Assembly (NCBI GenBank): GCA_036490465.1
Contig: DASXDV010000186.1
Coordinates: 17,225 to 81,224, forward strand
Length of the DNA stretch: 64,000 bases
Direction of reading: 5' to 3'
Source of the DNA: Candidatus Tumulicola sp.
Lineage (GTDB): Bacteria > Vulcanimicrobiota > Vulcanimicrobiia > Vulcanimicrobiales > Vulcanimicrobiaceae
Positions 1-39,751 of this stretch are shown here, piece after piece. The notes under the pieces were generated by a model. The model was not told the origin of the DNA. It worked only from the letters and a program-made list of their open reading frames with translations, and did no database searches. How positions within the stretch are numbered: position 1 is the first letter of the stretch; every line of letters begins with the position of its first letter. The position numbers and the translations under genes were made by a program.

Positions 1-402
1 GACGCGGTCGATGCATCGTTGGACGCAGCGGTGGGCGCGCGCATCGAGCCGGACGGCAGCATTGCCTACGTGCGAACCGCAATCGATCCGCGCACCGGCG
101 GCCGTGCCGACCGCACCGTGACGATCGGACGGGTGGCGCTGGCGCGCTTTCCCGCCGCCACCGGACTCGATACGGCCGACGGGCAACGCTTTCGCGCTCC
201 CGAAGGCGTCGTACCGCACGTCGGATTGGCGGGCGATGGGACGTTCGCAACGCTGGGTCCGATGAAGCGCGAGCGCAGTCGCGTCGATCTCGACGAAAGC
301 CTCGCGCGCCTCAAGGACGCCTACGTCGCATTCGACGCGTTGGCGGCTGCGGAGACGGCCAAGGAACGGCTCGGAAAAACTGCGATGGATATCGTCAAGT
401 GA
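1..402 (+). CDS. flagellar basal-body rod/hook family protein, C-terminal part (gene begins upstream of window)
   Basis: Frame 1 is open from base 1 to TGA 400-402. The C-terminal segment RVDLDESLARLKDAYVAFDALAAAETAKERLGKTAMDI resembles the conserved C-terminal helix of FlgF/FlgG-type rod proteins. Its stop overlaps the next flagellar gene start (GTGA). Confidence 0.45.
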   Translation, partial: DAVDASLDAAVGARIEPDGSIAYVRTAIDPRTGGRADRTVTIGRVALARFPAATGLDTADGQRFRAPEGVVPHVGLAGDGTFATLGPMKRERSRVDLDESLARLKDAYVAFDALAAAETAKERLGKTAMDIVK

Positions 403-1190
403 GATCGCTGACGTTCGATCGCCACGGAACGTGGCGTGAATCCAGGCGCGTGCGAGCTTCGCGATTGCAAGAGCGGTCGTTGCTCCCGCTGAGTGCGGCC
501 TGCATGGTGGGAAACGGCATTCGCGAAACGCTCGCCGCGCTGCTCGGCACCGCGGTGAGCGTCCGCCTCGTCGAGCCGGCCGTGCCGTCGCCCGGCGCGT
601 GGAGCGCGATCGTGCGCGACGCGCTGATGTACCGCACGCGCGGCAGCGTCGCGGACGCCGCTATCGTACTGCGTCCGGCGGACGCCGCCGCGCTGGCGGC
701 CGCCGTTTTCGGCGAACGCAGGAACGCGAGCGAGCCGCGGCGCGAGCTCTCACCGCTCGAACGCGACGTGGTCGATCGCGCCGCGGCGGCGATCGCGGTC
801 GCGTTGCCGGCAGTGTGCGGTACGCGCGATCGTGAGACGGCCGAGCGCGTGGAGGCGATCGCGGGCTTCTCTACGTATTTCGAAATCGTGGTCGACGCCC
901 CGATCGATGCGCGCATCGGGATCGCCGTATCGCGGGACCCGGCTCCCGAACCGCGTGGGCGTCTAACGCTCGAAGAGCTCGCCGGCGTCACGCTCGCGCC
1001 CGCCGTGACGCTCGACGCAGCCGCGATGAACGCGAGCAGCCTCGCGCGCTTGGCGCGCGGCACCGTCGTTCCGCTCGTGCGTTCCGGCGCGTTGCGCGGG
1101 ACGCTGACCGTCGAGGGTCGTGCCCTGGCTAGCGGAACCTGCGGAGTCCGCCGCGGGCGCTACGCTTTTACGGTTGCGGGTTCGCCATGA
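399..1190 (+). CDS. fliM: FliM-like flagellar motor switch protein (short form)
   Basis: 263-aa ORF. The core AAVFGERRNASEPRRELSPLERDVVDRAA fits the FliM 'FGG...R.LT.iE' block. The C-terminus (GTVVPLVRSGALRGTLTVEGRALASG) looks like a SpoA/FliN-type domain. It is shorter than a typical FliM, and no N-terminal LSQxEIDxLL peptide is visible. Confidence 0.6.
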   Translation: MRSLTFDRHGTWRESRRVRASRLQERSLLPLSAACMVGNGIRETLAALLGTAVSVRLVEPAVPSPGAWSAIVRDALMYRTRGSVADAAIVLRPADAAALAAAVFGERRNASEPRRELSPLERDVVDRAAAAIAVALPAVCGTRDRETAERVEAIAGFSTYFEIVVDAPIDARIGIAVSRDPAPEPRGRLTLEELAGVTLAPAVTLDAAAMNASSLARLARGTVVPLVRSGALRGTLTVEGRALASGTCGVRRGRYAFTVAGSP

Positions 1191-1465
1191 CGCTCGACGC
1201 GAGTCCCGTTCCGGGCGATCCCACGCTCGAAGTGTTGATGCACGTTCGATTGCAGCTCACGGTCCGGCTGGGAACGTGCCGGCTTTCGGTCGCCGAGGTG
1301 CTGAAGCTGGGCCATGGTTCGATCGTGGAACTCGACCGGGCCGCCGGCGATCCGGTAGATTTGCTGGCCAACGACGAACTAGTGGCGCGCGGCGAAATCG
1401 TGGCCGTCGATGCGAACTACGGCGTGCGCGTCACCGAACTCGTCGCGCGTCCCGATCGCCCGTAG
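1187..1465 (+). CDS. fliN: flagellar motor switch protein FliN (SpoA domain)
   Basis: 92-aa ORF with an ATGA overlap on the fliM stop. LQLTVRLGTCRLSVAEVLKLGHGSIVELDRAAGDPVDLLANDELVARGEIVAVDANYGVRVTEL is a full SpoA/FliN C-terminal domain. Confidence 0.8.
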   Translation: MTLDASPVPGDPTLEVLMHVRLQLTVRLGTCRLSVAEVLKLGHGSIVELDRAAGDPVDLLANDELVARGEIVAVDANYGVRVTELVARPDRP

Positions 1466-1469
1466 TTCG

Positions 1470-2126
1470 ATGGACGGATTGATCGCCGCCGCATCGCACG
1501 CGCACGCATTCGTGCCTCTGGACGTGCTCGCCGGTCTCGCGGTGCTGTCGGTTTTGCCGTTCGCTCTGGTGATGTGCACGTCGTTCGTCCGCATCGTCGT
1601 CGTGTTGTCGCTGGTACGCTCCGCGATCGGGGCTTCCGCCGTGCCGCCGAACGCCGTCCTCTCGGGACTCGCGCTGGTCTTGACCATGGTCGTAATGGCG
1701 CCGGCGCTCGAGCGAATCGATCGGGAAGCGTTGGGACCGTACGCGCGAGGCAAACTCTCCCAATCGCAGGCGTTGACGCGGGCGTTGCGGCCGCTGCGGG
1801 CGTTCATGCTTCGGCAGACCCGGCTGGCCGACGTCCGGCTCTTCGAGCGGGTCGCGCATCGCGCCCCCGAACCGGCGCAGCACGCCCGGTTGCTCGTGAT
1901 CGTTCCGGCCTTCGTCGTGGGCGAGCTGCGGAATGCCTTTGCGATTGGATTTGCGCTCTATCTGCCGTTCGTTGCAATCGATCTCGCGGTCTCGGCACTC
2001 TTAATGGGCCTGGGCATGATGATGCTCAGTCCGCCGGTGGTCTCGCTTCCGATAAAGTTACTGTTGTTCGTGATGGTCGATGGCTGGGCGCTCGTCTGCG
2101 GAGGCGTGACCGCGAGCTTTCGTTAA
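1470..2126 (+). CDS. fliP: flagellar biosynthesis protein FliP (export gate)
   Basis: ATG 1470 lies 4 nt after the fliN stop. CTSFVRIVVVLSLVRSAIG, PPNAVLSGLALVLTM, FMLRQTR, PAFVVGELRNAFAIGFALYLPF, MGLGMMMLSPP and LLLFVMVDGW follow the FliP consensus over the whole length. The listed ORF start at 1410 overlaps fliN and is not needed. Confidence 0.9.
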   Translation: MDGLIAAASHAHAFVPLDVLAGLAVLSVLPFALVMCTSFVRIVVVLSLVRSAIGASAVPPNAVLSGLALVLTMVVMAPALERIDREALGPYARGKLSQSQALTRALRPLRAFMLRQTRLADVRLFERVAHRAPEPAQHARLLVIVPAFVVGELRNAFAIGFALYLPFVAIDLAVSALLMGLGMMMLSPPVVSLPIKLLLFVMVDGWALVCGGVTASFR

Positions 2127-3034
2127 TGCTCGCACGTATGCGGATCGACGACGCGATCGCGAGCCTGCGGCCGTTCTTTTCGTTCGAATTCTTTCCGCCG
2201 AAGGACGACGAGGGGTCCCGCCGGCTGTTCGAAGCGATCGCCGCCTTACAGCCCTTGCGTCCCGCCTTCGTTTCGATTACGTACGGCGCGGGAGGATCGA
2301 CTCGCGCCCGGACCGTCGCCCTCGCCAAGCAGATCCAGGCAGAGACGGGCCTGACGGTCGTCGCTCACGTGACCTGCACGGGGATGGGGCGCGCCCAACT
2401 GCGGGTGCTGTTCGACGACCTTTCCCGCAGCGGGATTCGCAACGTCCTCGCGCTGCGCGGCGACCCTCCCAAAACGGCGAGTGCGTTCGAGCCGGCGGCG
2501 GGCGGGTTCGCCCACGCCGCCGAGCTTATCGCGATGCTGCGGCGCAACTACGATTTCTGCATCGGCGCGGCGTGTTATCCGGAGAAACATCCCGAATCGC
2601 CGAGCCGCGACGACGACCTCGCACGGCTAGCCGAAAAGGTAGCGGCCGGCGTCGACTTTCTGGTGACGCAGCTCTTTTTCGACAACGGAGCGTTCTTCGA
2701 ATTCGAGCGGCGCGCGCGGACGGCGGGCATCGCCGTACCGATTCTGCCAGGGTTGATGCCGATCACGAACTTCGACCAGATCGAGCGCTTCGTGGCGATG
2801 TGCGGTGCGTCGGTTCCCCCGAAGCTACGGGTAGAAATGGAGTTGCGCCAAGGCGACAAGGAGGCGGTCGAAGCGCTTGGGGTAGCCTACGCATCCATGC
2901 AGGCGATGTCGCTCTTGCAGGCGGGCGTTCCGGGCATTCACTTCTACACGCTCAACCGCTCGCCGGCCACGCGCGCCATCGTCTCGTCGCTGCTGGCCGC
3001 CAGCGTCTGGCGTCCGGCCTTCACGCGCGTTTAA
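2126..3034 (+). CDS. metF: 5,10-methylenetetrahydrofolate reductase MetF
   Basis: The 302 aa from ATG 2126 overlap the fliP TAA (TAATG). FSFEFFPPKDDEG, FVSITYGAGGSTR, VAHVTCTG, ALRGDPP, CYPEKHPES, DFLVTQLFFD and GIHFYTLN are typical MetF blocks. The upstream part of ORF 1574..3034 is out-of-frame overlap with fliP. Confidence 0.9.
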   Translation: MLARMRIDDAIASLRPFFSFEFFPPKDDEGSRRLFEAIAALQPLRPAFVSITYGAGGSTRARTVALAKQIQAETGLTVVAHVTCTGMGRAQLRVLFDDLSRSGIRNVLALRGDPPKTASAFEPAAGGFAHAAELIAMLRRNYDFCIGAACYPEKHPESPSRDDDLARLAEKVAAGVDFLVTQLFFDNGAFFEFERRARTAGIAVPILPGLMPITNFDQIERFVAMCGASVPPKLRVEMELRQGDKEAVEALGVAYASMQAMSLLQAGVPGIHFYTLNRSPATRAIVSSLLAASVWRPAFTRV

Positions 3035-3084
3035 GTCCACATCGCGGACATCCGGCGGTAAAGCCGGCGCATACCGTTGCGAGA

Positions 3085-3354
3085 ATGGATGCGTTCGACG
3101 GATTGCTGCGTTCGGCGCTGCTCACGACCGCGGCGGTGGCGCTCCCCGTCCTAGCGGTCGCGGCGGCGGTCGGGACGGCCGTCGCGGTCGTGCAGGCCGC
3201 GACCCAAGTGCAGGAACAGACGTTGACCCTGCTGCCGAAAATCCTGGCCGTAGGTGCGATGGCTGCCGCTTTCGGCGCGGCTGCGATGCAGTTGTTTGCG
3301 GCGCTCTTCGAGCGTGCGTTGGGCGCCGTCGCGGCCGTTACCGGCGGTTCGTGA
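3085..3354 (+). CDS. fliQ: flagellar biosynthesis protein FliQ
   Basis: 89 aa from ATG 3085, forming a two-TM hairpin. AVGTAVAVVQAATQVQEQTLTLLPKILAVG matches the FliQ 'iQa.TqiqEqtL.f.PKi' signature. Its stop overlaps the fliR GTG. Confidence 0.85.
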   Translation: MDAFDGLLRSALLTTAAVALPVLAVAAAVGTAVAVVQAATQVQEQTLTLLPKILAVGAMAAAFGAAAMQLFAALFERALGAVAAVTGGS

Positions 3355-4067
3355 GCGTTACGGCGCTGCTGGTTTTCGCGCGTTGTGCCGGCTTTGCGTT
3401 TCGCGCCCCCGGGTTCGCGCATCCGAGCGTGACGCCGGCTCTGCGCGCGGGCTTGGCGGCGTTTCTGGCGATCGCAACCGCGCCGTCGGCAGGCAGCGCG
3501 CTCGGGCCGATCGAGGGTCTGGCGGTCGTGCCGGCTTTCGCGCTGGAGTTTTTGATCGGCAGCGCGATCGGCATGACCGCCTCGCTGGTGTACGACGGCG
3601 CGTACGCGGGCGGTCGCGCGGTCGACGACTACGTCGGCGTCAAAGCGATCGCTCCCAGCCTGCAGCTCGTCGCGCCGAGCGGATTCGGGAGAATGTGGTC
3701 GCTCGCGTATACCGGCGGATTTTTTCTTTCGGGGGCTTATCGCGTAACGATTCTCGCCTTCGCACATGGGTTCGCCCGGCTTGCGCCCGGGAGCGCCGTC
3801 GACGCGCACGCGTGGTCGGCGTACGCGGGCGCGCTGGCGGCGGGCATCGCCTCGGTCGGCGTCGCCGTCGCGGCTCCCGCGATCGGATCGGCGTTCGTCG
3901 CTCAAACTGCGTTAGGTGCGCTCTCGCGCGCCGTCCCGCGCTTCGGCAGCTTCACCCTGGCGTTTCCGCTGGCATTTGCGGCCGCCTTGGTCGCGACCGT
4001 TCTGGGAGTGCCGTCGATCGTGCCATCCGATCTGCTTCCCGTATCGGCGATCCCCGGCGTGCCTTGA
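3351..4067 (+). CDS. fliR: flagellar biosynthesis protein FliR
   Basis: 238-aa polytopic ORF (GTG start) in the fliQ-fliR-flhB position. FARCAGFAFRAPGF, a Gly/Ala-rich TM pattern and its length all fit FliR. Confidence 0.85.
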   Translation: MSVTALLVFARCAGFAFRAPGFAHPSVTPALRAGLAAFLAIATAPSAGSALGPIEGLAVVPAFALEFLIGSAIGMTASLVYDGAYAGGRAVDDYVGVKAIAPSLQLVAPSGFGRMWSLAYTGGFFLSGAYRVTILAFAHGFARLAPGSAVDAHAWSAYAGALAAGIASVGVAVAAPAIGSAFVAQTALGALSRAVPRFGSFTLAFPLAFAAALVATVLGVPSIVPSDLLPVSAIPGVP

Positions 4068-5067
4068 GCGACGACGCAGAAAAGCCGTTCGAAGCGACCC
4101 CGCAACGAATCGAGAAGGCCAAGCGCGAGGGCGACGTCGCGCGTTCGGCGGAGCTGCCGGCAAATCTATCTTTCGCCTGCGCAGCCTGCGCGGTCGTCGC
4201 CATCGTGCAGCCGTTGGGCGGACAAGCGCGCGGCGCGATCGTCGCCGCAGCTTCGGGACGCGTCGAGTGGGCGGCCTGCGCGGCGATTTTCGCGCTTGCG
4301 CTCGTTCCGGTCGGCGCTGCCGCGGCCGCGGCAGTCGCTGCGGGCGCGCTGCAAGGCGGCCTGCGCGTCGGAGCGTTCGGGGCGAAACTCGTCCGGCTCA
4401 ATCCAATCGAGGGGATCAAGCGCATCGTGTCGCGCGAGACGTTCGCGCACGGCGCGCGGGCGGCGGCCGCGTTCGCATTGGCAGCCGGCGCGATCCTCCC
4501 GATCGCCGGCGCGGCGATCTCCCAAATGTTGCATGCGAACGCTCCCCCGGTGGTCGCGGCCGCCGCGTGGCGCGCCGTGGAGCGCGTGTCCTTAGCGGCC
4601 TGCGCGACCGGATCGTTATTTGCGCTCGCCGAGTAATGCGGCGGCTCGCGGCGGCTGGCTTCGTAGGCTGCGAATGACGTTCGACGAGCGCAAACGGGAA
4701 GCCAAAGAACAGGAGGGCGATCCGTTTGCTCGCGGACGCCGGCGCGCCCTTCATCGCGCGTTGCTGCGCGGCGCCCTGAGCGATGTCAAAGATGCGTCGT
4801 TCGTGGTCGTCAATCCAACCCACGTGGCGATCGCGCTGGCGTATCGGCCGCCGGAGATCCCCGTACCGCGGATCACGGTGCGTTCCGCCGGAGAGGCCGC
4901 GCTCCGGGTTCGCGCACTGGCCGAGAAGCACGCCGTTCCGGTGGTCGAAAACGTCGCACTGGCGCGGGCGCTTCATCGGGACGGGCGCGTCGGCGAACCG
5001 ATCGCCCGGATCCCACTACGTCGCGGTAGCGGAGATCGTAACGGCGCTGCGACGAGCCGGCGCGTGA
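4064..5067 (+). pseudogene. flhB: flhB (flagellar export switch protein) disrupted by two frameshifts
   Basis: TTG 4064 overlaps the fliR stop.
- N-terminal part, frame 2: LSDDAEKPFEATPQRIEKAKREGDVARSAEL plus TM helices, ending at TAA 4634-4636.
- Continuation, frame 0: WLRRLRMTFDERKREAKEQEGDP...VVVNPTHVAIALAY...HAVPVVENVALARAL.
- Last ~20 aa, frame 1: HYVAVAEIVTALRRAGA, stop 5065-5067.
Removing one base near 4635 and one near 5004 restores a consensus FlhB. The 1004-nt length is 2 mod 3. Confidence 0.8.
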
Positions 5068-7098
5068 CGCGCGCGCCGGTCTACGCATTCGCGGCGTTGC
5101 TGCTGGCGGTCGTCGCGATTCTGATCGTGCCGCTCCCGCCTTGGCTGCTCGACGTCCTGCTCGGAATCAACATCTTCGCTTCGGCGCTCGTCCTTTTGCT
5201 TTCGGTGACGGTCGACGATCCGCTGGAGTTCTCGGCGTTCGCGCCGGCTCTCCTAGTAGCGACCCTTTTTCGTCTCTCGTTGGACGTGTCGGCCACCCGC
5301 TTGATTCTGACCGACGGCGCCGTGCCGGGTGCCGTCGGCGCGATCATCCCGGCGTTCGGAGCGTTCGTGGTGCACGGCAACTTGGTAGTCGGACTGATCG
5401 TGTTTGCAATTTTGGTTACGATCCAGTTCGTCGTCATTGCGAGCGGCTCGCAACGGGTCGCCGAAGTGGCCGCCCGCTTCACGCTCGATGCGATGCCGGG
5501 CAAACAGATGGCAATCGACGCCGACGTGCACGCCGGCTCGCTCGATGCCGAGGGCGCCCGCCTCAAACGCGCGATCGTACAGCGCGAAGCCGACTTCTAC
5601 GGCGCGATGGACGGCGCCGGCAAATTCGTCAAGGGCGACGCGGTCGCCGCGCTCGTGATCGTCGCGCTCAACCTGATCGGCGGGATCGTGGTCGGCACGT
5701 TCTATCGCGGCCTGTCGCCGCTCGAAGCGCTCGATACCTTCGCGCTGTTGTCGGTTGGAAACGCGTTGGTAACGACCTTACCGGCGTTTCTCATTTCGAC
5801 CGCGATGGGCATGATGGTTACACGCGTAGCTTCCGACGGCGCGCTTGGCGCCGATTTGGCGGCGCAGCTGTTCGCGCGTCCCGACGTGCTGCGGTGTGCC
5901 GGCGGTCTGCTGATCGCGCTTTCGTTCGTGCCGGCGCTCCCGCGGCCGCTATTCTTCTTGCTCGGAGGCAGCGCGTTCGCGCTCGGACAAGCCGCGCAAC
6001 GGCGTCGCCGGCGCGCGCGAGGAGCGCCGCGACGCCCGCGAGCGCGCCCGGCGGGCGGCTTTGCGGCGTCCCGAACTCGCCCTCGGACTCGTCGGGGTCG
6101 ACGCGATCGCCGTGGAAATCGGTGGAGAACTTGCGCGCCTGCTCAGTGCCGCCGCTGGCCGACGCGCTCTTAGATCGCATCGGCGAGGTCCGCCGGGCGC
6201 TCGCGGCCGACATCGGCATCGTTTTGCCCGGCGTTCGATTGCGCGACGACCTCACGCGCGATCCGCGAACGTATGCGATTCGGGTTCGCGATCGGTTGGC
6301 CGGCGAAGGCCGGCTCGACCTGGAACGGCTGTTAGCGGTTGCCGACGAATCGATCCTCGCGCGCCTCGAGGTCGCCGTCGAAAGCGAGCCGGTATACGGT
6401 TTACCGGCCGGCTGGATCCCGATCGCGCAGCGCGACCGCGCGACCGAAGCGGGCGCTTTGGTCTTCGACCCGATCTCGGTCCTCGGATCGCATTTGGCGG
6501 AATTGGCTCGCACGAATGCCGCCGACTTGCTCGGGCGTCAGGAGTTCCAAACGCTGCTCGAGCATTTGCGCGCGAGCGTGCCCGCGGTGGTCAAGGACGT
6601 CGGCGGCGAACTGCTGCCGTTGCGCAGTGTTCATCGCGCATTCGGTCTGTTGCTGCGCGAAGGCGCGTGGCCGCGCGACCCCGTGCACGTTCTCGAGACG
6701 ATGTTGGAGTCGGGCAGCCGCGATCCGCGCGAACTCGCAGAGTCGGCGCGCCGGGCGATCATACCCGCGCTGCTGCGCCGGAGAGGAGCCGGCTTGCTCG
6801 AGCCGGTCATGTTCTCACCCGAGCTCGAACACCGCTTGGTCGCCGCCTGGATCGAGCACGAGGGCGATCCGATCGCTGCCCGGCCGCGCTGGCGCTGCGC
6901 GAGCGGGTGGAGCGATACGCCCGCCGGATACCGCACGATCGAGCGGCCGTCTTATGCACGGGCGCTCTGCGGCCATTTCTCGCCGATTTTCTGCTGCGCG
7001 CCGGCGTACGGGTTGGAGTCTACGCCTACGGCGAGCTGCCGAGCGAGCTGGAAATCCATCCGGCGGAGGTCGTCGATGGGGACCCCGCTGCGGTATAA
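5064..7098 (+). pseudogene. flhA: flhA (flagellar export gate protein) disrupted by three frameshifts
   Basis: GTG 5064 overlaps the flhB stop.
- Frame 0: TM domain and FHIPEP block (RVAEVAARFTLDAMPGKQMAIDADVHAG...FYGAMDGAGKFVKGDAVAA).
- Frame 1 from ~6010: REERRDARERARRAALRRPELALGLVGVDAIAVEIGGELARLL.
- Frame 2 from ~6145: PLADALLDRIGEVRRALAADIGIVLPGVRLRDD...
- Frame 1 from ~6880: ALALRERVERYARRIPHDRAAVLCTGALRPFLADFLLRAGVRVGVYAYGELPSELEIHPAEVVDG, stop 7096-7098.
The 2035-nt length is 1 mod 3. Confidence 0.8.
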
Positions 7099-7138
7099 TG
7101 CAGGGAGCCCCGGTCGCTCTGTTGGAGGAACGCTTCCG

Positions 7139-7372
7139 ATGCGCCGCACATTTAGCGCTCTCGTGGTCGCCCTCGCTCTTTCCGGCTGCGCCGCGCTGGG
7201 GAGTTCGCTACCCTATCACGCCTCAGCCGAGGACGCGATGGGCATGACGATCGAGCAGTATGCGGTCGGACGGTTGCCCGCCGCCGGTCAGAGCAAGCTG
7301 CACTGCGCGCAGCACAACCATAAGGCGGGCAGCCCGCATCACCGGGCACCGAAAGGGTGCCGGGCGCGTTAG
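7139..7372 (+). CDS. small putative lipoprotein
   Basis: ATG 7139 is preceded by GGAGGAA (7124-7130). MRRTFSALVVALALSGCAALG has a signal peptide plus LSGC lipobox. 77 aa with no recognisable family. Confidence 0.35.
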   Translation: MRRTFSALVVALALSGCAALGSSLPYHASAEDAMGMTIEQYAVGRLPAAGQSKLHCAQHNHKAGSPHHRAPKGCRAR

Positions 7373-7416
7373 GGCCGACCGGCAGGCCTGCTAACGTCGA
7401 AACGTTAAACCCTACC

Positions 7417-7450
7417 GGCCCGGCGGGCAACCGTTGCGGGCCTTTTGTTT
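7417..7450 (+). terminator. candidate intrinsic terminator after the flagellar operon / small lipoprotein gene
   Basis: A GC-rich stem (GGCCCG 7417-7422 pairing with CGGGCC 7437-7442, with extra inner pairing possible) is followed directly by TTTTGTTT (7443-7450). Confidence 0.4.
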
Positions 7451-7466
7451 GCACCGCTTTCTTCGG

Positions 7467-8834
7467 ATGCCAATGAGCTGGACTAACCTCAAAACGCCGT
7501 TCAAGGCGCTGGTCATCATCGCCGTCGTCGGGCTATCGATCTGGTCGATCCTCCCGATCTCGCAGAAGATCCATCTGGGCCTCGACCTCCAGGGCGGCTC
7601 CCGGCTGCTTTTGCAACTGTATCCGACGGCGAGCGTCCCGACGATTACGACCCAAGTACAGGCGCAGACCCGCGAAGTCATCGACCGCCGAATCAACGGG
7701 CTGGGCGTCGCCGAGCCGTCGATCAGCAACGTCGGCACCGACCGAATCTTGGTGGAACTGCCCAACGTCAAGAATCCCGACGAAGCCGAACGCGTGCTCA
7801 AAGAAGTTGCGGTACTCGATTACAAGATCGTGCCGCCCGACGTCGACCAGAAGGCCGAGTCGGCGCTAGCGGCGCTGTCCAATCCGAATCTTCCCGCCAA
7901 GGCAAAGGCCGCGGCCGAAGCGTACGTCGCCCTAGGCGCGTACAATGCCAGCGGACAAGTCGTCTATACCGGTGCGGAACTCAAGGCCGCGCAAGCCGGG
8001 TACGATCAGAGCAATCAGCCCAACGTGCTCTTCCAGACCAAGAACCCGTCGAAGTTCGGCAAGCTCACAAGCGCAAACGTGGGCAAACTGCTCGGCATCT
8101 TTCTGGACAAGCGCTACGTTTCGGCTGCCGTCATCCGAAGCCCGATTTACGATAGCGGCGAAATTTCCGGAAGCTTCACCCAAGAACAAGTCGTGACGCT
8201 AGCCAACGAGCTCAATGCCGGCGCCTTGCCGGTGACGACGCGGATCGTCGAAAAGGAAACGATCGGTCCCACCCTGGGTAAGATCGACCTCGTTCAGTCG
8301 ATGCGCGCATCGATGCTCGGCTTAACGCTGGTGCTGATATTCATGCTGGCCGTCTATCGTCTCCCGGGCTTTTTGGCCGACGTCGCACTGGCCATCTACG
8401 TGCTCGTGATGATGGCGATCCTGGCGGTATCGCACGCCACTTTGACGCTGCCCGGCATCGCGGGATTCGTGCTGTCGATCGGCATGGCGGTCGACGCCAA
8501 CGTGCTGATCTTCGAGCGCATCAAGGAAGAGCTGTGGAACGGCAAGACGATGCGGGCGGCCGTGCGGGTGGGCTTTCAACGCGCCTTTTCGGCGGTTTTC
8601 GACAGCCACTTTACGACGATCGTGGGCGCCGGCGTGCTGTACTGGCTCGGCACCGGCACGGTCAAGGGCTTCGCGTTCACCCTGTTCTGGGGCACCGTCG
8701 TGTCGCTGGTGACGGCCGTCTTCGTGACCCGCTTCTTCGTCGACGCGCTGGTCGATAACGGCATCGCTACGACGCCGGAACTCTACGGCGTCAAACGCGA
8801 CGAAGTCGGCATCTTCGCCAAGGCCGGAGCGTAG
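7467..8834 (+). CDS. secD: protein translocase subunit SecD
   Basis: LGLDLQGGSRLLLQL, GPTLGKIDL and GIAGFVLSIGMAVDANVLIFERIKEE are SecD signatures. The start is set at ATG 7467 (alternative 7473) because ORF start 7434 lies inside the upstream terminator-like hairpin. Confidence 0.9.
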   Translation: MPMSWTNLKTPFKALVIIAVVGLSIWSILPISQKIHLGLDLQGGSRLLLQLYPTASVPTITTQVQAQTREVIDRRINGLGVAEPSISNVGTDRILVELPNVKNPDEAERVLKEVAVLDYKIVPPDVDQKAESALAALSNPNLPAKAKAAAEAYVALGAYNASGQVVYTGAELKAAQAGYDQSNQPNVLFQTKNPSKFGKLTSANVGKLLGIFLDKRYVSAAVIRSPIYDSGEISGSFTQEQVVTLANELNAGALPVTTRIVEKETIGPTLGKIDLVQSMRASMLGLTLVLIFMLAVYRLPGFLADVALAIYVLVMMAILAVSHATLTLPGIAGFVLSIGMAVDANVLIFERIKEELWNGKTMRAAVRVGFQRAFSAVFDSHFTTIVGAGVLYWLGTGTVKGFAFTLFWGTVVSLVTAVFVTRFFVDALVDNGIATTPELYGVKRDEVGIFAKAGA

Positions 8835-8837
8835 CCG

Positions 8838-10154
8838 ATGCTGTTCCGTCGCCTGAACTGGAATATCGTCGGATGGTTTCGCATCGTTACGACGATTTCG
8901 TATCTCGTGATCGCCGTGGGAATCGGCTCGATGTTCTACCACGGCTTTGCCGGCGGTCAAGGGTTCGTGCCATCGCACATGCTGCGTCTCGGCTTGTCGT
9001 TTACCGGGGGAACCGATATCGCCGTACGTTTCGAGCAACCCTCGACGACCGATCGGGTGAAGCAAGCGCTTGCGGGACTGGGTCTGACCGAAGAGTCGGT
9101 TACCACCGCGGGTACCGACGGTAAGGGTTTCCACATCGAAACGCAGACGTCGTTTGCCAACGACTCGGCGCCCTTGTGGACGGCGCTCGGAACGGTCGCA
9201 CCGGTCGACCGGGCCGCCTCGTCGGTTACCGCCGTAGGCCCGTCGCTGGGCCGCGAGTATTTGGTCAAGGCACTCTGGGCGCTCGTGATCGCGCTGGGCA
9301 TCCAGTTCCTCTACATCGCGTTTCGCTTCGGCTGGAACTACATCTTCGGCCTCGTTACCGTCATCGCACTGGTACGCGACGCGGCCATGATGATCGGCAT
9401 CTACGCGCTTGCGGGCCGGCGCGCCGACGACGCCTTTTTGGCCGCCGTCTTGACGGTCATCGGCTATTCGGTGATGGACACGATCGTCATCCTAGACCGG
9501 ATCCGAGAAAATACGAAGCTCATGGCGGGCTCTCCATACGACGTGATCGTCAACGAATCGATCAAACAGACGATGACGCGCTCGTTCAACACGCTGGCGA
9601 CGGTCGTGATCACGCTGGTCGCATTGCTCGCCTTGGGCGGCGCAAGCCTCAAGAATTTTGCGTTCGCCCTGCTGGTTGGAATCGTTTCGGGCGGCTATCA
9701 CTCGATCTTTTTCTCGGCGCCGCTCGTCCTGCATTTCCGCAAACGCCAGCTCGAGGCGTCGCAGCGTCGCCGCCGCGCCGGACTGGCCGCCGACCGGAAC
9801 GTCAGCTCCCGCTCGCGTTCGGAAGCGACCGCCTTGCAAAGCCGGGGCGGACAAGCGCGCGAGGATATCGTGGCGGCGCGTCGCGAACGCCGGCAGAAGG
9901 CGAAAACCGCGCGCACGGTGGCGCCGGGAGTGCCCGCGCGGTACCGCAAGAAGCGCGACTCGGCCGGCGCGGTCGCGGTCGAGGATGCGTACGCGGGCGA
10001 GAACGAGCCGATCGATCCGCTTGACGCGCAAAACGCCGGGTTGCACGATGCGGCATTCGAACAAGGTCACGAAGAGATCAAGCTCAACCTCGACGAGTTC
10101 GAAGCGCCGGGCGAATCCAACGGCGACCGAGCGCACGAAGAAGAACGCCCCTAA
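8838..10154 (+). CDS. secF: protein translocase subunit SecF with a long charged C-terminal extension
   Basis: ATG 8838 lies 3 nt after the secD stop. LGLSFTGGTDI, GPSLGREYL, VIGYSVMDTIVILDRIREN and LVGIVSGGYHSIFFSAPL are SecF blocks. About 135 extra Arg/Glu/Ala-rich residues follow the last TM. Confidence 0.9.
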   Translation: MLFRRLNWNIVGWFRIVTTISYLVIAVGIGSMFYHGFAGGQGFVPSHMLRLGLSFTGGTDIAVRFEQPSTTDRVKQALAGLGLTEESVTTAGTDGKGFHIETQTSFANDSAPLWTALGTVAPVDRAASSVTAVGPSLGREYLVKALWALVIALGIQFLYIAFRFGWNYIFGLVTVIALVRDAAMMIGIYALAGRRADDAFLAAVLTVIGYSVMDTIVILDRIRENTKLMAGSPYDVIVNESIKQTMTRSFNTLATVVITLVALLALGGASLKNFAFALLVGIVSGGYHSIFFSAPLVLHFRKRQLEASQRRRRAGLAADRNVSSRSRSEATALQSRGGQAREDIVAARRERRQKAKTARTVAPGVPARYRKKRDSAGAVAVEDAYAGENEPIDPLDAQNAGLHDAAFEQGHEEIKLNLDEFEAPGESNGDRAHEEERP

Positions 10155-10248
10155 GGCTCGCCGCCCCCTGCCTCTGCCGACTCCGTCGGAGGCCGCGTTC
10201 GAAAGCGCGCTGGCCGCCCTCAAGGGCGATAGCGAAACCTCAGTTCGC

Positions 10249-12141
10249 GTGCCGTCGGCGGTCCCGGAAGAAGCCGGTCTCCGCGACGCCTTCGTCGACG
10301 CGGCGTTTTCCAAGAGCGCCGAATATCTGCGCGATCCGTACGCGCGGATCGCCGATGCTGCGACGTTTCACACCAAAGTGGTCGGGGTTTCGTTCGAAGG
10401 GCGGCAGGATACGATTGCGGGCTTGCGCGTCGGCGCGTCGCTAACGCTCGAGCGCCAACCCGGCAACCAGAAGGATCCCAACGCCATCGCCGTGCGCTAC
10501 GGCGACCTGCAAGTCGGGTTCATCAGCCGCGGCATCGCCGCGCACCTCGCACCGGCGATCGACGCCGGAGCGAGCTATCGCGCACGGGTCGCTTCGCTGA
10601 CCGGCGGCGGCGAGCGCAGCCGCGGCGTGAACGTGTTCGTCGAGCGCGACGCGGCCGCCGCGATCGCACGGCGGGAACGGTCGCGAGAAACCGCGCGCTC
10701 GGCGTGGGCCGGCGACGAACGGCGAGTCGCGGCCGCGCTGATCGGGAAGGCGACGCCGCACGACGCACAGCGGGCCGTGCTCGATCGCGTCGCCGCGGGG
10801 CGCAACACGTTGGCGGTATTGGGCACGGGGCGCGGAAAATCGTTTTGCTTTCAACTGCCGGCCGCGCTGCGCGCGCTTTCGGCCGGCGAAAAAACGCTGG
10901 TCGTTTACCCGCTGCGCGCTTTGGCCAACGATCAGTACGAGGCGTTGATGCGGACGCTCGACCCACTGGGTTTGCGAATTTTTCGCGCCAACGGGTCGAT
11001 CGACAGCCAGCAGCGCGCCGAACTCTTCGAAGCGCTGCGCGAAGGCGCGTGGGACGTCGTCCTAGCTACTCCGGAGTTTCTAGACTTTCATCGCGACGCG
11101 TTTGCCGGCCGGAGCTGCCCGGCATTCGTCGTAATCGACGAAGCGCACCACGTTCACGAATCGCGGCACCGGCCGGCGTACGCGCGGCTGCGGGCGACGA
11201 TTGCCGGGCTGAGAAATCCGCAAGTCCTAGCGCTGACGGCCACGGCGGGAGACGAGGCGTTTGCCAAGATCGTTGCGGAGCTGCAAATCGAGGCTTGGGT
11301 GATCGATCCGACGATTCGCGAAAACCTTCGGGTGGTCGACGCCCGTAACCGCAAAGACAAAATCGGTTACCTGCGCGAGCTGTTCGCGCACGAAGCCAAG
11401 GGTATCGCGTACTGTAACTCACGCAAGGACGCCGCGGACGTCGCGCGCGGACTGCGCGAGGCGCTGGGTAACGAGGTGATGTTCTATCATGCCGGCATGC
11501 CCAACGGCGACCGTCAGGAAGTCGAACGCCTCTTTCGCGAGGGCGGCCTGCGGGTCGTCATTGCGACGTCGGCGTTCGGCGAGGGCATCGACCTGCCCGA
11601 CGTCCGTCACGTCGTCCTGTACCACCTGAACTTCGATTTCGCCGAGTTCAACCAGCAGGCGGGGCGCGCCGGCCGCGACGGCTCCCCGGCCGAGATCCAT
11701 CTGCTCTACGGCGAAAGCGATCGTCGGCTCAACGACTACCTCATCGATCTCGATGCGCCGGCCCTTCCGGTGCTGCGCGAGATCTATCGCGGAATGCGGG
11801 CGCTGTCGCGCGATGCGATCGTTCGCAATGGCAACGCCGATATCGCGGCCATCCTCGATTTGGACAAGGTCCGCGATCGGACCGTGTCGGCGGCATTGCG
11901 GATCTTCGCCGATGCGAACTTGATCGAGATAAGCGAGGACGACGAAGGCCGGCTCGTGCGCTTTCTACCGGTGAACGGCCGCATCGACCTCGAGCAAAAC
12001 GAACGCTTCGCCGAGGGTGAGGCGATCCGCGAGAGCTTCGACGCGTTCTGCAAGCTCGCGTTGACCGCTTCGGCGCAGACCCTCGAGCACGTCATCAATC
12101 GTCCGATTTATCCGAGCCGCACGCCGCTGGAGCGTCCGTAG
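10249..12141 (+). CDS. HIRAN domain - RecQ-like SF2 DNA helicase fusion
   Basis: The HIRAN block is KVVGVSFEGRQDTIAGLRVGASLTLERQPGNQKDPNAIAVRYGDLQVGFISRGIAAHLAPAIDAG. It is followed by helicase motifs I GTGRGKS, II VIDEAHH, III LALTATA and VI QQAGRAGRDG. The start is uncertain. GTG 10249 is the first start after the secF stop. ATG 10048 would overlap secF by 107 nt. Confidence 0.8.
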   Translation: MPSAVPEEAGLRDAFVDAAFSKSAEYLRDPYARIADAATFHTKVVGVSFEGRQDTIAGLRVGASLTLERQPGNQKDPNAIAVRYGDLQVGFISRGIAAHLAPAIDAGASYRARVASLTGGGERSRGVNVFVERDAAAAIARRERSRETARSAWAGDERRVAAALIGKATPHDAQRAVLDRVAAGRNTLAVLGTGRGKSFCFQLPAALRALSAGEKTLVVYPLRALANDQYEALMRTLDPLGLRIFRANGSIDSQQRAELFEALREGAWDVVLATPEFLDFHRDAFAGRSCPAFVVIDEAHHVHESRHRPAYARLRATIAGLRNPQVLALTATAGDEAFAKIVAELQIEAWVIDPTIRENLRVVDARNRKDKIGYLRELFAHEAKGIAYCNSRKDAADVARGLREALGNEVMFYHAGMPNGDRQEVERLFREGGLRVVIATSAFGEGIDLPDVRHVVLYHLNFDFAEFNQQAGRAGRDGSPAEIHLLYGESDRRLNDYLIDLDAPALPVLREIYRGMRALSRDAIVRNGNADIAAILDLDKVRDRTVSAALRIFADANLIEISEDDEGRLVRFLPVNGRIDLEQNERFAEGEAIRESFDAFCKLALTASAQTLEHVINRPIYPSRTPLERP

Positions 12142-12146
12142 GCCGC

Positions 12147-13886
12147 GTGCACCTTCCGCACGGTCGTGAGGCGATCGCTTCGGGCGCCTTAGGCGTCGTA
12201 TGGCTGTTGGGGCTATGGGCCGCCGCCCCGATATTCCGTCCGCTGAAATCTTTGGCGCAACGGCTGGCCGCGACGATGGCGTTGGGTTGCTGCATCCCGC
12301 TGGGTCTCGGCCTGCTCGATCTCTTGTACTGGTGGTCTTCGTGGGCGGTCTTGTGCGCGCTGCTCGTCACGCGCGTCGTACGCGATGCCAACCGGGCATC
12401 CCGGAATCCGGAAAAAGGCCGGCCGTGGGATCTCTTGATTGGATTCGCGGTGCTGTTGGCGTTGGCTTGGCCGATCGCCGTGCGGCCGGCCATGGACGGC
12501 GATACGCTGATCTATCATCTTCCGAATGCCGCGAGCTGGGTCGTGCACCATGGCCTGTGGACGACGGGAACCCGGTACTGGTGGTATCCGCCCACGTCGG
12601 AACTCTTCGCTGCCGGTCTGCTGGCAACGGGCGGCGTCGGCGTCGTCGGGTGGGCGGGGATGCTCCCGGCTGCCCTGCTGCTGCTCGTGGTTCGCGAAGG
12701 AGCGCGTCGAAGCGGAGTTCCTCCGCTCGTAGGGACGCTCGCGGCGTGCGCGTTGCTCGCCACTCCCGTCGTTGCGGTCCAGCTCGTGTCGTTGCAAAAC
12801 GACGTCTGGTTAACCGCTCTTTTCCTATTCGCGCTTACGGACTACGCGCTGGAGAACTTTGCCATCTTGGCGTTGACCAAGCCTTACGGCATCGTTTTCT
12901 CGCTCATCGCGAGCTCGACGTGGGGGCCGGCTCGCACGCGATTGGTCAAGGCATTCCTGTGGGCGTCGGGAGCCTTGGCGCTTTGGGCGGTACGCGACCT
13001 CATTTTAACGCCGTCCGCAATCGTCCCCATCGAAACGACGTTCGTCGGCAACGTCGCGCGCACGACGATCCTCGGAAACCTGCCGGCTTCACTGGCATCC
13101 TTGTGGTCGGCATCGTGGCATGCCGGCATCGTCTGGGTCGTGCTTTTGGGATTGGGCATCGCGTCGCTCTTTGTTGCGAACGATCGTCGCCTGCGGTGGG
13201 CGGCCTTCGTTTCCATCGTCGTCTTTGCGATCGTCCCGACGGGGTACGTGGGCGGCTCGGTGCGGCAGCTAGCGACCGGAGCGTCCTTACGATTCGCGCT
13301 GCCGGTAGCCGCGCTCGGCGTCTTGTGGCTCGTCTGCGCGACGAAGCGATGGGCGATTTTCGTGGCGGCGGCGGCGGCGATTGGAACGATCGGCGGTATC
13401 GTCGAACAATGGCGGTTGTTTTCGAACGATGCGACGACGCATGACGCACCGGCGATCGCGATCGTATCGGCGCTGATCGCTGCGGGCGCGCTCGTGATTC
13501 GCGACGTGCGCATTAGAACGGCGATCGCGATCGGATTGTGTCTCTGCCTCGGAGCTCTCGCCGGCGGACTGGCCCGCAGCCATCCTGCCGACTACGTGAG
13601 CGACGAGTACGGGAGCGGGTTCGCCTACGTCTCCGCCCGGCACTACGAGCGCATCGTTACGTTGGGACTACCCGCCGGCGCGGCCGTCACGCTCGATCCC
13701 GCCGCGAGCGTTTTCGATGGTCTCGACGAAGGCGTCTGCGCGCAGGCACGCGCGCTTCACGCTATCGTGATCGCCTCGATTTCCAAGCTGCCAACCGCGC
13801 GATGTGGCCGAATCATCTATCGCGACGGCGCAACCGCAGTACTCGACAACGGATACGCCCGTCGCGCCGACGATAAACGCGGCTAA
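12147..13886 (+). CDS. polytopic membrane protein, possible GT-C-type glycosyltransferase
   Basis: 579-aa ORF (GTG start) with about 12 or more hydrophobic helices. An acidic DGD motif (AMDGDTLIYHLPNAASW) follows the early helices, as in ArnT/PMT-like GT-C enzymes. Family assignment is inference only. Confidence 0.55.
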   Translation: MHLPHGREAIASGALGVVWLLGLWAAAPIFRPLKSLAQRLAATMALGCCIPLGLGLLDLLYWWSSWAVLCALLVTRVVRDANRASRNPEKGRPWDLLIGFAVLLALAWPIAVRPAMDGDTLIYHLPNAASWVVHHGLWTTGTRYWWYPPTSELFAAGLLATGGVGVVGWAGMLPAALLLLVVREGARRSGVPPLVGTLAACALLATPVVAVQLVSLQNDVWLTALFLFALTDYALENFAILALTKPYGIVFSLIASSTWGPARTRLVKAFLWASGALALWAVRDLILTPSAIVPIETTFVGNVARTTILGNLPASLASLWSASWHAGIVWVVLLGLGIASLFVANDRRLRWAAFVSIVVFAIVPTGYVGGSVRQLATGASLRFALPVAALGVLWLVCATKRWAIFVAAAAAIGTIGGIVEQWRLFSNDATTHDAPAIAIVSALIAAGALVIRDVRIRTAIAIGLCLCLGALAGGLARSHPADYVSDEYGSGFAYVSARHYERIVTLGLPAGAAVTLDPAASVFDGLDEGVCAQARALHAIVIASISKLPTARCGRIIYRDGATAVLDNGYARRADDKRG

Positions 13887-14581
13887 GCCAGCACGCCGGC
13901 AACCCGGTCTCCATCGACGGCCTTGTAGAACGCGTTGGCGGTTTCGGTAATTCCGGCGCGAGCCCACGGATCGATCTGACTGCGCGTGGTCGGTAAATGG
14001 ACGGTGGGCCCAACCGCATCGGAATAGTCGGCGCCCCCAAATGGGCCGAAGCTGTGGCTTTCGCGATGCGCGAGCACCAGCGCGCCGACGGCCTCGCGCG
14101 CCGCGCGAGCCTCGCTGCGGAGCGGGTCGCCGAGACGGGCGTCGTTAGCCAGCGTGCCGTAGACGGCCATCGCCGGACGATCGGCATGCCACGGCAGGTC
14201 GCGGTCGGCGCCGGGGAAGCGCACCATCCCCTCAATGCCGCGCACGTCGGCTCGAATTGCCGCGCGGGAGCTTGGCTGGCTTTTGGCTGCGCTTACGAGG
14301 TCGTCGTCGAGCCGTTTGATCGCGCTTTCGGCGCGCGCGATTTTGGCAGCGTCGAGATCGAGCACGTCGAATGCCGCGGCCGGCCGTATCGGGCCAAACG
14401 GCGACGGATAGGCGGCACTCATGACGTCGTGCACGATCGCCCCGGCCATCGCTGCGGGATCGTCGGGATGCGCGGCAATCGCATGGGCGACGCCGCTCGG
14501 AACGCCGGGCGCCAGCATCGTCTCGGGCGATGCGGCCAGCCATTTGACGCCCGCGTGCGAAAGCGCGTCGGCAAAGCCCAT
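13883..14581 (-). CDS. clostripain (peptidase C11)-like protein, C-terminal region only (probable truncated remnant)
   Basis: The 232 aa begin with MGFADALSHAGVKWLAASPETMLAPGVP...MAGAIVHDVMSAAY...AAFDVLDLDAAKIARAESAIKRLDDDL. This resembles the region just after the catalytic Cys of C11 peptidases (FDACLM...SEE.ePg.G...iDLsk). No His/Cys catalytic half is encoded upstream: the frame closes at a stop about 130 nt upstream and is low-complexity there. Confidence 0.45.
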   Translation of the reverse strand: MGFADALSHAGVKWLAASPETMLAPGVPSGVAHAIAAHPDDPAAMAGAIVHDVMSAAYPSPFGPIRPAAAFDVLDLDAAKIARAESAIKRLDDDLVSAAKSQPSSRAAIRADVRGIEGMVRFPGADRDLPWHADRPAMAVYGTLANDARLGDPLRSEARAAREAVGALVLAHRESHSFGPFGGADYSDAVGPTVHLPTTRSQIDPWARAGITETANAFYKAVDGDRVAGVLA

Positions 14582-15046
14582 GGGATAATACAGATACCGC
14601 GAAAACGTCCGGGTCCTGGTCCTCGCGCGGGTCCGGTCCTCGTCCGCGTCCGCGCGCTCGGGTCCTGGATCGCTTGCCTGGTCCCGAGGGGCGACGACAA
14701 CGAACGATCACCTCGTGATCAAACCTTCTTAGCATTTATTGCCAATAACGCACCTGGATGCGAAGTGGAAAGGCTGCGCGTACCATTTGTCTCGGCCTCA
14801 TCCCACTCGTCTTTTCTGCGTCGACAGACAGGCTGCCGGATTATCGTTTTGAGATTGATTTAACGTAGCTAGCGTATCGAGCTATCCACCCCTGAGCGCG
14901 AGGAGGCGCTTCATGTTTCATTGTCGGACAGCACCCGAGCCATGGTTTCACAAAACGTCTGATACGCTGCGCCGTTCCTAGAAATCCACATTTGTACGGC
15001 TACAGCAATTGTGCGGTTTCTCGTGGATGTGGTACGCCTTGCGAAT

Positions 15047-16103
15047 TCATAAAGCCAGTCGTGTGGGTCCAAGCCTTCCGATGCGGCCAAAGCTGTCCTT
15101 ACTGTTTCGGGAGCTGTCTATGTCGGGTAGCGCGATCGTCTTGACGGCCGATCCGCCCGCCGGGTATCGGTAGACCGCAACTTGCGGGGAGGCCGAATTC
15201 ATCGTCGCAAGCTTCCGTCGCCCCTTGGGCCCGAAGATGTCGAGCTCGCCGATATAGGCTGCGAATTGGACAGTTTCAGCGACGCGGCCGAAGCGGCCGT
15301 GAAAGCGCATGCGGTAAACGGTGCCGAAATCGCTCTCCGTCCCCGCGAACGCGAGATAGCGGCCATCCCATTGCATGTCCCAGGGAAAGTCGAATTGCAC
15401 ACCTTTGATCGTCGCCGTCTCCCACGTGCTGCTTCCCGCGCGCGGGTACGCCAAAGCCGGTCCGCTGCTGTCGAACCCGTTGACGTACAAGTTGCCCGAG
15501 CCGTCGTAAGCGATGAAAAAGCATTCGAGTATCCCATCCGGCTCCACGTACGTGGTTCCCTGGGTTTCAGCGGGCTTCCAAACGGTGACCGCTCCCTCTC
15601 CGGTCGTCGGACTGAAAATATCCGATGCGGCGACGTCACCGTTCCCTGGATTTACGGAGCACCCAACGGGATATTCCCCCGGGTCGTCGAGCACGCGGAT
15701 CGGCATCGTGCCGCCGTGCGCGTATTCGAGCACGTTTCCGTCGCCGGTGTCGGCGATATACACGTTGCCGGCGTCGTCAGTACATTGGCCCTCCGGATTC
15801 AACACGCCCGAAAGCACGCCCAGTGCTTCCCCCTTGGGATAGGTATAGACTTCGACGATGCTATTATTGAAATCGCTGACGTAGATAAGCCCTTGTTTTC
15901 GTGCCTGCGGATCGAGCCAGCTTCGGCCGACCAGCGGGAGCGGGGCCGTTGCGGAGGGCTGCCGCTCCGGTTAGCACGCTGACGGCCGGAAAGCGCGGGT
16001 TGGCATTTGGTTGCGGTGCAATTTGCCCGCCGGCGCAGCCGGCGAAGACGAAAGCGGCAACGGCGCCGGCCATTCGTTGGAGCGATCGTATGACGCCGTT
16101 CAT
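15047..16103 (-). pseudogene. beta-propeller (NHL-like repeat) lipoprotein gene split by a frameshift
   Basis: ATG 16103 opens MNGVIRSLQRMAGAVAAFVFAGCAGG (signal plus lipobox), which terminates at 15864. The propeller body is open in another frame from ~15960 (PLPLVGRSWLDPQARKQGLIYVSDFNNSIVEVYTYPKGEALGVLSGVLNPEGQCTDDAGNVYIADTGDGNVLEYAHGG...) down to 15047. The architecture parallels the intact paralogue at 35059-36069. Confidence 0.55.
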
Positions 16104-16174
16104 ACCCGGAAGATTTCTGTTGCCGCGCGCGCCGACCCACGTGACGAGGTGCCGTCGAGGTGCCGCGGCGCCGG

Positions 16175-39017: not shown

Positions 39018-39118
39018 CAGGAGCTGCCCTTTCGTAATCAAGGATTTAGGGCGCTGATTCCGGAGGCTCCCGGACCTCCCTTGGGACTTTCGGGAAACGG
39101 TGTGGAACGAGAGGCAAA

Positions 39119-39751
39119 ATGGCCGGTGCAGTTTTCGGGGCGGCCGTGACCGCATTCGTTGCCCTCTTCCCAATCGTCAACCCGATTGGCGGCTTGGCCG
39201 TGTTCTTTGCGCTCACGAGCGACGATAGCGAGGAGCAGCGCCGGGCGTACTCGCTTCGGATCGGCCTCTACGTGGTCGCAATTCTGCTGGCCTTCGCATT
39301 GGCGGGGTCGTGGGTTCTCGAGTTCTTCGGGATCTCGCTATCGGCGCTGAGGATCGCCGGCGGCCTGATCGTTGCTCACACGGCGTGGGCGATGGTCACC
39401 GCGTCGAGCCGCACCACGCCGGCCGAAAAAGCCGAAGCCGAGCAAAAGGACGACATCTCGTTTAGCCCCATGGCGATGCCGATGCTCGCCGGCCCGGGCT
39501 CGATCGGCGTCGTCATGGCGCTGGCCGCGCGGCCCGATCCGGGCGTCTGGATGATCGGCATCGCGTTTGCCGTGGTTGCGATGGGAGCGCTGGTTTACTT
39601 GTTGCTGCGCTTAGGGGGTCCGCTGGCTCGGCGGATGGGACCGGGCGCGCTCGGCGCGATCGACCGGATTCTCGGCTTCCTGATTCTCGCGATCGCCATC
39701 GAACTGATCATTAACGGATTCAAGGGGATCTATCCTAAGTTCGGAATTTGA
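39119..39751 (+). CDS. MarC family (UPF0056) integral membrane protein
   Basis: FVALFPIVNPIGGLAVFFALTSD...GISLSALRIAGGLIV...MPMLAGPGSIG... is the MarC signature pattern. 210 aa with 6 helices. Confidence 0.85.
   Translation: MAGAVFGAAVTAFVALFPIVNPIGGLAVFFALTSDDSEEQRRAYSLRIGLYVVAILLAFALAGSWVLEFFGISLSALRIAGGLIVAHTAWAMVTASSRTTPAEKAEAEQKDDISFSPMAMPMLAGPGSIGVVMALAARPDPGVWMIGIAFAVVAMGALVYLLLRLGGPLARRMGPGALGAIDRILGFLILAIAIELIINGFKGIYPKFGI

Follow-up and report, generated by a model that had tools for sequence, protein, structure and literature searches.

In a 64,000-nt stretch of DNA (the window) from Candidatus Tumulicola sp., an uncultured soil bacterium of the Vulcanimicrobiaceae (Vulcanimicrobiota), the adjacent flagellar export-gate genes flhB and flhA are in all likelihood genuine pseudogenes that were frameshifted recently, and the export gate would have been inactivated by five independent small insertions or deletions (indels). 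These fall in the genes for the gate's two largest subunits and have, in order, the signs +1, +1, -2 or +1, +1 and -1. All segments of the FlhB and FlhA families (PF01312 and PF00771) are present and colinear, but the reading frame is broken twice in flhB and three times in flhA.

Frame structure of flhB and flhA

The frames were followed with a frameshift-aware protein-to-DNA alignment written for this analysis. The reference was the intact FlhB and FlhA of L003, a Vulcanimicrobiaceae metagenome-assembled genome (MAG) that is the closest relative in the genome collection and whose FlhA, of 683 amino acids, is one open reading frame (ORF). With this reference the alignment changes frame exactly five times, at about 4634, 5004, 6024, 6151 and 6872; the sites were refined by DNA alignment with three relatives and by protein alignment with the nearest homologues. 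Repaired FlhB and FlhA are the translations obtained after the offending indels have been corrected. All features lie on the plus strand unless otherwise stated.

The flhB pseudogene occupies 4064-5067 in three frame segments, as judged by Pfam, the frameshift-aware alignment and colinearity with 119 homologues. Its TTG start overlaps the fliR stop codon, and its TGA stop overlaps the GTG start of flhA. Segment 1 (4064-4633) encodes the transmembrane (TM) domain, segment 2 (4637-5003) the linker and the cytoplasmic domain with the NPTH autocleavage motif (VVVNPTHVAIAL), and segment 3 (5005-5067) the C-terminal tail. The Bac_export_2 profile (PF01312, length 335) is matched at positions 2-193 in 4064-4633 and at 204-320 in 4638-5003, in different frames; the piece at 5005-5064 is too short for Pfam, and the tail aligns to homologues in the third frame. 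Frameshift 1 is an extra base, 4635 or 4636, within 4634-4636, where GAG-TAA-T stands against GAx-TAC (Tyr) in relatives, and it produces a TAA stop where the TM domain meets the cytoplasmic domain. Frameshift 2, also of +1 nt, lies at 5004-5007 in GCCC (CC has become CCC, and relatives have one base fewer) and shifts the reading of FlhB into the flhA frame. With two frame changes, at about 4635 and 5004, flhB does not form a single ORF; repaired FlhB has 333 amino acids and no internal stops, and is colinear with its homologues over every junction.

The flhA pseudogene (5064-7098) is read in four frame segments, on the evidence of Pfam, alignment and colinearity with 120 homologues. Segment 1, from 5064 to about 6010, encodes the TM domain with the FHIPEP motif, segment 2 (about 6025-6144) a linker, segment 3 (6146 to about 6883) the cytoplasmic domain and segment 4 (about 6885-7098) the C-terminal subdomain. 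Positions 1-297 of the FHIPEP profile (PF00771, length 657) are matched in 5064-6011 and positions 352-586 in 6146-6880, again in different frames, and the pieces at 6013-6144 and 6880-7095, which are too short for Pfam, align to homologues in other frames. Across the FlhB and FlhA segments the Pfam E-values run from 1e-19 to 3e-125, far outside chance.

Frameshift 3, a net +1 change of frame, can be placed anywhere within 5995-6030, its position being ambiguous in an Arg-rich linker. It is most simply a 2-nt deletion (or else +1), because relatives carry one codon more there, and a (GC)4 run at 6011-6019 beside it is a candidate slippage site. Frameshift 4 is an inserted A at 6145, in CTC-A-GTG; when this A is removed the translation gives LLVPPLADALLD, as in relatives. 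Frameshift 5 is a 1-nt deletion within 6872-6885, probably at about 6883-6885, in GCTGC-CCGG, and restoring one base gives DPIAAxAALALRER, equal in length to relatives. The three frame changes (about 5995-6030, 6145 and about 6883) prevent flhA from being a single ORF, and repaired FlhA, of 676 amino acids, has no internal stops and is colinear with homologues over every junction.

An earlier note, made from the sequence alone, had put five frameshifts in these two genes near 4635, 5004, 6010, 6145 and 6880, the two in flhB outside long homopolymers, and had recognised the NPTH motif of FlhB and the motifs RFTLDAMPGKQMAIDAD and LGLVGVDAIAVEIG of FlhA. The number of shifts is borne out, their positions are right within the ambiguity of each site, the FlhA motifs as well as NPTH are found in the segments, and no tract of 5 nt or more occurs at any of the sites.

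As the frames stand in this sequence, neither an intact FlhB nor an intact FlhA is translatable from it. Frameshift 1 leaves an FlhB fragment of 190 amino acids ending after the TM domain. From frameshifts 2 and 3 comes a chimeric ORF of 499 amino acids (4674-6173), called as a gene by both JGI and NCBI, which joins the FlhB cytoplasmic domain, 20 junk residues, the FlhA TM domain and about 50 junk residues; it carries both Bac_export_2 and FHIPEP, and is stopped by frameshift 3 after the FlhA TM domain. Frameshifts 4 and 5 interrupt the folded cytoplasmic domain of FlhA. A second chimeric ORF, of 408 amino acids (6146-7372), arises from frameshift 5 and is called as a gene in the contig L002; in it the FlhA cytoplasmic domain is read out of frame into the downstream lipoprotein gene (7139-7372), and public gene calls merge the flhA remnant and this gene as one 408-residue 'FHIPEP' protein. 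The predicted products would be a 190-residue FlhB TM fragment, a chimera of the FlhB cytoplasmic and FlhA TM domains, and a detached FlhA cytoplasmic fragment. Export past the MS ring and C ring is impossible without the FlhA/FlhB gate, and a cell with no gate should lack flagella. We infer a loss of function and of motility.

Occurrence of the lesions in other assemblies and in relatives

The earlier note had taken the five breaks for real lesions rather than random assembly error, and had proposed that an independent assembly be inspected over the indels. The same indel state is seen in JGI, Logan and NCBI records, which supports that view. The contig Ga0376660_0002250 (41 kb) of JGI metagenome 3300036790 carries all five shifts and aligns to positions 1-16173 of the window (16,173 nt) without gaps and with a single mismatch, A/C at 13271. 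A Logan contig of run SRR11832711 has 100% identity over 2947-5240 (2,294 nt), a span that includes both flhB shifts. In a second JGI metagenome, 3300037258, the contig Ga0376646_0000041 (564 kb) is identical to the window over 11749-33914, differs from it at a single nucleotide in 37304-58677, and is recorded with the same 190-residue FlhB fragment and 499-residue chimeric ORF. The same fragments (HEY1656351 and HEY1656352) are encoded by an 87.9-kb contig of a third-party MAG at NCBI, 'Candidatus Tumulicola sp.'. The locus was traced in these assemblies by exact-protein look-ups, in which the longer SecD and FliP ORF versions and the 408-residue chimeric ORF had no match, the index being incomplete or using other start codons; an exact 36-mer from 6084-6119 had no match in a collection of metagenome contigs that lacks the source samples. 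Over comparisons of 16-22 kb with the JGI contigs there are no gaps and only single nucleotide polymorphisms. Since the contigs differ by these single polymorphisms they are separate assemblies, yet with an identical indel state, and they come from one nearly clonal population across samples.

Elsewhere in the window frames are largely undisturbed. Between 11.7 and 58.7 kb they were checked from public gene calls and Pfam marks; plots of periodicity and of GC content at third codon positions (GC3) had been tried for detecting frameshifts window-wide, and were dropped as too noisy here (GC3 about 0.75-0.82). The genes secD, secF, a HIRAN helicase, relA, an RND pump, lon, dnaB and about 40 other called genes look whole, and across about 58 kb of the window only one further frameshift came up, in a beta-lactamase-family gene. 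The claim of undisrupted neighbours in the earlier note thus stands for relA, the RND gene, lon, dnaB, secD, secF, fliP, fliQ and fliR, and extends to the fliM-like gene, fliN and metF; it fails for this second split gene.

The split beta-lactamase-family gene lies on the minus strand at 37766-39173. An ORF of 275 amino acids (38346-39173) corresponds to positions 1-139 of the Pfam Beta-lactamase profile (PF00144), and one of 188 amino acids in another frame (37766-38332) to positions 152-275; from these matches the split is probably a single frameshift near 38332-38349. A JGI contig (L087) matches the window around 37766-39173 without gaps.

It is very unlikely that the genome has intact flhB and flhA genes and that the five indels are consensus errors. 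Indel errors do occur in MAG and metagenome assemblies, and a relative, L084 (ENA ERZ25039558 contig_88679, 8130-15102), shows them in the same region: fliR is uncalled, flhB is cut to 149 amino acids, and secD is split and fused with secF. L084 has the appearance of an assembly in which indel errors are scattered: its breaks affect fliR and flhB and also the housekeeping gene secD, whereas those of the window are, in the flagellar cluster, confined to flhB-flhA. The assemblies compared may share libraries or a pipeline, so that a shared systematic error is conceivable, and the missing amino-acid decay described below is the outcome expected of an artefact. Yet at least three assemblies (two JGI metagenome identifiers and Logan/NCBI), which differ elsewhere by single polymorphisms, share exactly these indels, the sites are outside long homopolymers, the 16-22 kb comparisons are free of gaps, and with one other frameshift in about 58 kb the probability that random errors would cluster in this way is about 1e-6.

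The orthologous locus in relatives, another check that had been suggested, is intact. In the syntenic relative L083 FlhB has 339 and FlhA 678 amino acids, both whole, and both are also whole in L003. Among the matches listed, repaired FlhA has at least 120 homologues of 76-83% identity, all of 673-692 amino acids and most of them carrying the names Candidatus Tumulicola, Cybelea or Eremiobacterota, and repaired FlhB has at least 119 full-length homologues of 332-351 amino acids with identities of up to 74%. Taken together the identities of the FlhA and FlhB homologues span 55-83%, and the homologues come from the same phylum. None of the five splits is common to any relative (more than 100 FlhA/FlhB homologues, and L083), and by this comparison the frameshifts are lineage-specific. 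In a collection of 15 billion proteins there was no FliR within 90% identity except for copies from the same population, which leaves no closer relative by which to order the five events.

Age and confinement of the hits

The nearest relative has about 74% DNA identity, at which synonymous sites are saturated, and a conserved-column test was therefore used in place of the ratio of nonsynonymous to synonymous substitution rates (dN/dS). For each homologue, departures were counted at columns that in the remaining sequences are invariant or reach 95% or 90% conservation. Repaired FlhA departs at 2 of 246 invariant columns (the mean is 0.45, and a count of 2 is reached by 10% of homologues), at 6 of 391 columns conserved to at least 95% (18% of homologues reach 6) and at 13 of 440 conserved to at least 90% (12% reach 13). 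Its replacements are all conservative (I/V, A/G, M/L, L/F, E/D, R/H). The corresponding counts for repaired FlhB are 0 of 36, 2 of 75 and 2 of 97, all within the normal range, as are those for the intact FliF of the same organism, used as a control (0 of 68, 3 of 157 and 9 of 216). By a Poisson bound, neutral divergence after constraint was lost is at most about 1%, and its point estimate is about 0.3%; together these values translate into about 8-32 substitutions over the 3 kb. Such low change at conserved columns is compatible with a very recent inactivation (t of at most about 1%), and the recent date proposed in the earlier note gains support from the lack of excess change at these columns.

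Several points weigh against recent pseudogenisation of flhB and flhA. Significant amino-acid decay was not found in repaired FlhA or FlhB by the conserved-column test. Five indels against so few substitutions would lie at the indel-rich end of what is expected from bacterial mutation spectra, which is not impossible, and the usual indel bias in bacteria is towards deletions, while four of the five events here could be insertions. Indel states were compared between assembled contigs rather than reads, allele frequencies and linkage being outside the scope of that comparison. Finally, the hits are concentrated. In the rest of the flagellar cluster twelve genes (9.0 kb; window, L002 and L088) are intact, with lengths as in L083; a Logan contig ends 394 nt upstream of fliF. 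Had neutrality come to the entire cluster in one step, all five hits would land within the 3.0 kb of flhB-flhA with a probability of about 0.001, or of 0.004 when the first hit is given. Simple decay across the cluster does not fit this. A knock-out of the gate under selection with the rest of the cluster still constrained is a possible cause; another is that translation was lost beyond the first hit, so that this stretch alone became neutral or more mutable, and a third that several loss-of-function alleles arose in the population.

The first of these causes can be extended to an adaptive, targeted knock-out, in which loss of the gate was positively selected, loss-of-function alleles accumulated or recombined, and the other flagellar genes remained partly constrained. 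Example benefits would be silencing of late flagellar genes, energy saving, or escape from flagellotropic phage or predators, and gate knock-out is a known cheap way of turning off late flagellar genes. The distribution of the hits, five of five in flhB-flhA and none in 9 kb of other flagellar genes, speaks for it. Experimental evolution of Campylobacter jejuni likewise favours disruptive mutations in flhA, flhB and fliP, the gate being required for expression of the downstream flagellar regulon (PMC7677240). The Campylobacter result, though, is a rationale for the first hit only: once a first knock-out is present further hits bring no gain, and for all five to appear in a majority-rule assembly most haplotypes would have to carry several. 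We regard this explanation as a minority possibility, unlikely but well worth keeping in view. Under the favoured explanation, recent pseudogenisation, selection may or may not have acted on the first hit, and any that followed in the same stretch, no longer translated, would be neutral.

It is extremely unlikely that the genes still work, either by ribosomal or transcriptional recoding at five sites or through a gate built from pieces, namely the FlhB TM fragment, the FlhB-cytoplasmic/FlhA-TM fusion (ATG 4674) and the FlhA cytoplasmic domain (GTG 6146). The quality of the coding sequence is wholly kept, as under constraint; frameshifts 1 and 3 lie at the boundaries between TM and cytoplasmic domains, and frameshift 2 joins the FlhB cytoplasmic domain in frame to FlhA. 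Recoding at five separate sites within 3 kb would, to our knowledge, be without precedent, which counts against it. Brucella melitensis 16M does make a flagellum despite stop or frameshift lesions in flhA, fliF, fliG and others (PMC7410920), so lesioned flagellar genes need not mean that there is no flagellum. Further evidence against working genes is that none of more than 100 relatives shares the splits, that frameshifts 4 and 5 fall inside the folded cytoplasmic domain, and that the restart codons have, by eye, weak or absent Shine-Dalgarno motifs. Either a selected knock-out of the gate alone or pieces that still form a working or repurposed gate would, if true, explain both the preserved coding quality and the confinement of the hits to flhB-flhA; that one or other of these holds seems quite improbable.

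Two further candidates were tried and rejected. For programmed frameshifting or transcriptional slippage, no X XXY YYZ or prfB-like motif was found at the five sites, and no shift is shared with relatives. For phase variation of the Campylobacter type, the contexts are TA-A-T, GCCC, the (GC)4 neighbourhood, C-A-G and GCCC, with tracts below 5 nt throughout.

The surrounding locus and related systems

The window starts inside a flagellar gene cluster, and the order fliP-fliQ-fliR-flhB-flhA with overlapping stop and start codons is a typical operon context. Ahead of flhB, Pfam identifies as intact a fliM-like gene (399-1190), fliN (1187-1465), fliP (1410/1470-2126), metF for methylenetetrahydrofolate reductase (2129-3034), fliQ (3085-3354) and fliR (3351-4067), the lengths from the fliM-like gene to fliR (399-4067) agreeing with those in L083. 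Beyond flhA, secD (453 amino acids) and secF (438 amino acids) are intact at 7473-10154. In L083 the order is fliF-fliH-fliI-(SLT)-Asp_protease-x-rod-like-fliM-like-fliN-fliP-metF-fliQ-fliR-flhB-flhA-small ORF-secD-secF-helicase.

The clade's cluster has some features of its own. metF sits within the flagellar operon, between fliP and fliQ (window 2129-3034), and keeps this place in two syntenic Tumulicola-like relatives (L083 7061-7957 and L084 7052-7960); in the more distant L003 the insertion is absent and fliQ follows fliP directly. FliF is short, 488-490 amino acids, with a weak FliG_M match (L002 1-5729, upstream of the window; L083; L084; L088), and in the same four contigs fliH comes directly after fliF, fliG being absent as a separate gene at that place. 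Between fliI and the rod-like gene the cluster encodes a conserved protein of about 530 amino acids with an Asp_protease_2 (retropepsin-like) domain, and an SLT lytic transglycosylase gene is present in the cluster of L083 only. Between flhA and secD lies the lipoprotein gene (7139-7372; 77 amino acids, lipobox MRRTFSALVVALALSGC, LPAM_1), which is conserved in relatives as an ORF of 76-80 amino acids.

Flagellar pseudogenisation is common among non-motile lineages, and the present case is a new instance of a well-known type of event, recent gene inactivation, and otherwise a routine pseudogene. In Brucella melitensis 16M and B. ovis, stops and frameshifts are found in flhA and other flagellar genes while the clusters are otherwise conserved (PMC7410920); the Brucella lesions are spread over many genes and loci, with one or two in each, whereas here there are five in two adjacent genes with the 12 others intact. 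In Campylobacter coli, flhA is described as phase-variable in the work of Park et al. (2000) as cited in PMC7677240. As here, the Campylobacter changes are small indels in export-gate genes, and there flagellar expression is abolished; they differ in being mostly in homopolymeric A/T tracts and reversible single hits, whereas the five hits here are outside long homopolymers and are therefore not a reversible switch. The sole cultured member of the Vulcanimicrobiaceae, the family of the window's organism, and also of the phylum, is Vulcanimicrobium alpinus WC8-2, a non-flagellate bacterium that lacks a flagellin gene and uses type IV pili to move (PMC9758169). Flagellar loss therefore does occur in this family. 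V. alpinus is without a flagellin gene altogether, in contrast to the window's organism, which keeps a well-preserved flagellar cluster with fresh lesions.

Five hits in two genes with no other decay remain a small unexplained anomaly. In the MAG annotations the fragments pass for ordinary FlhB and FlhA proteins, with the lesions unflagged, and inferring motility from the presence of flagellar genes in MAGs would mislead for this population. The locus adds a datable, very recent example of probable flagellar loss in the Vulcanimicrobiota.

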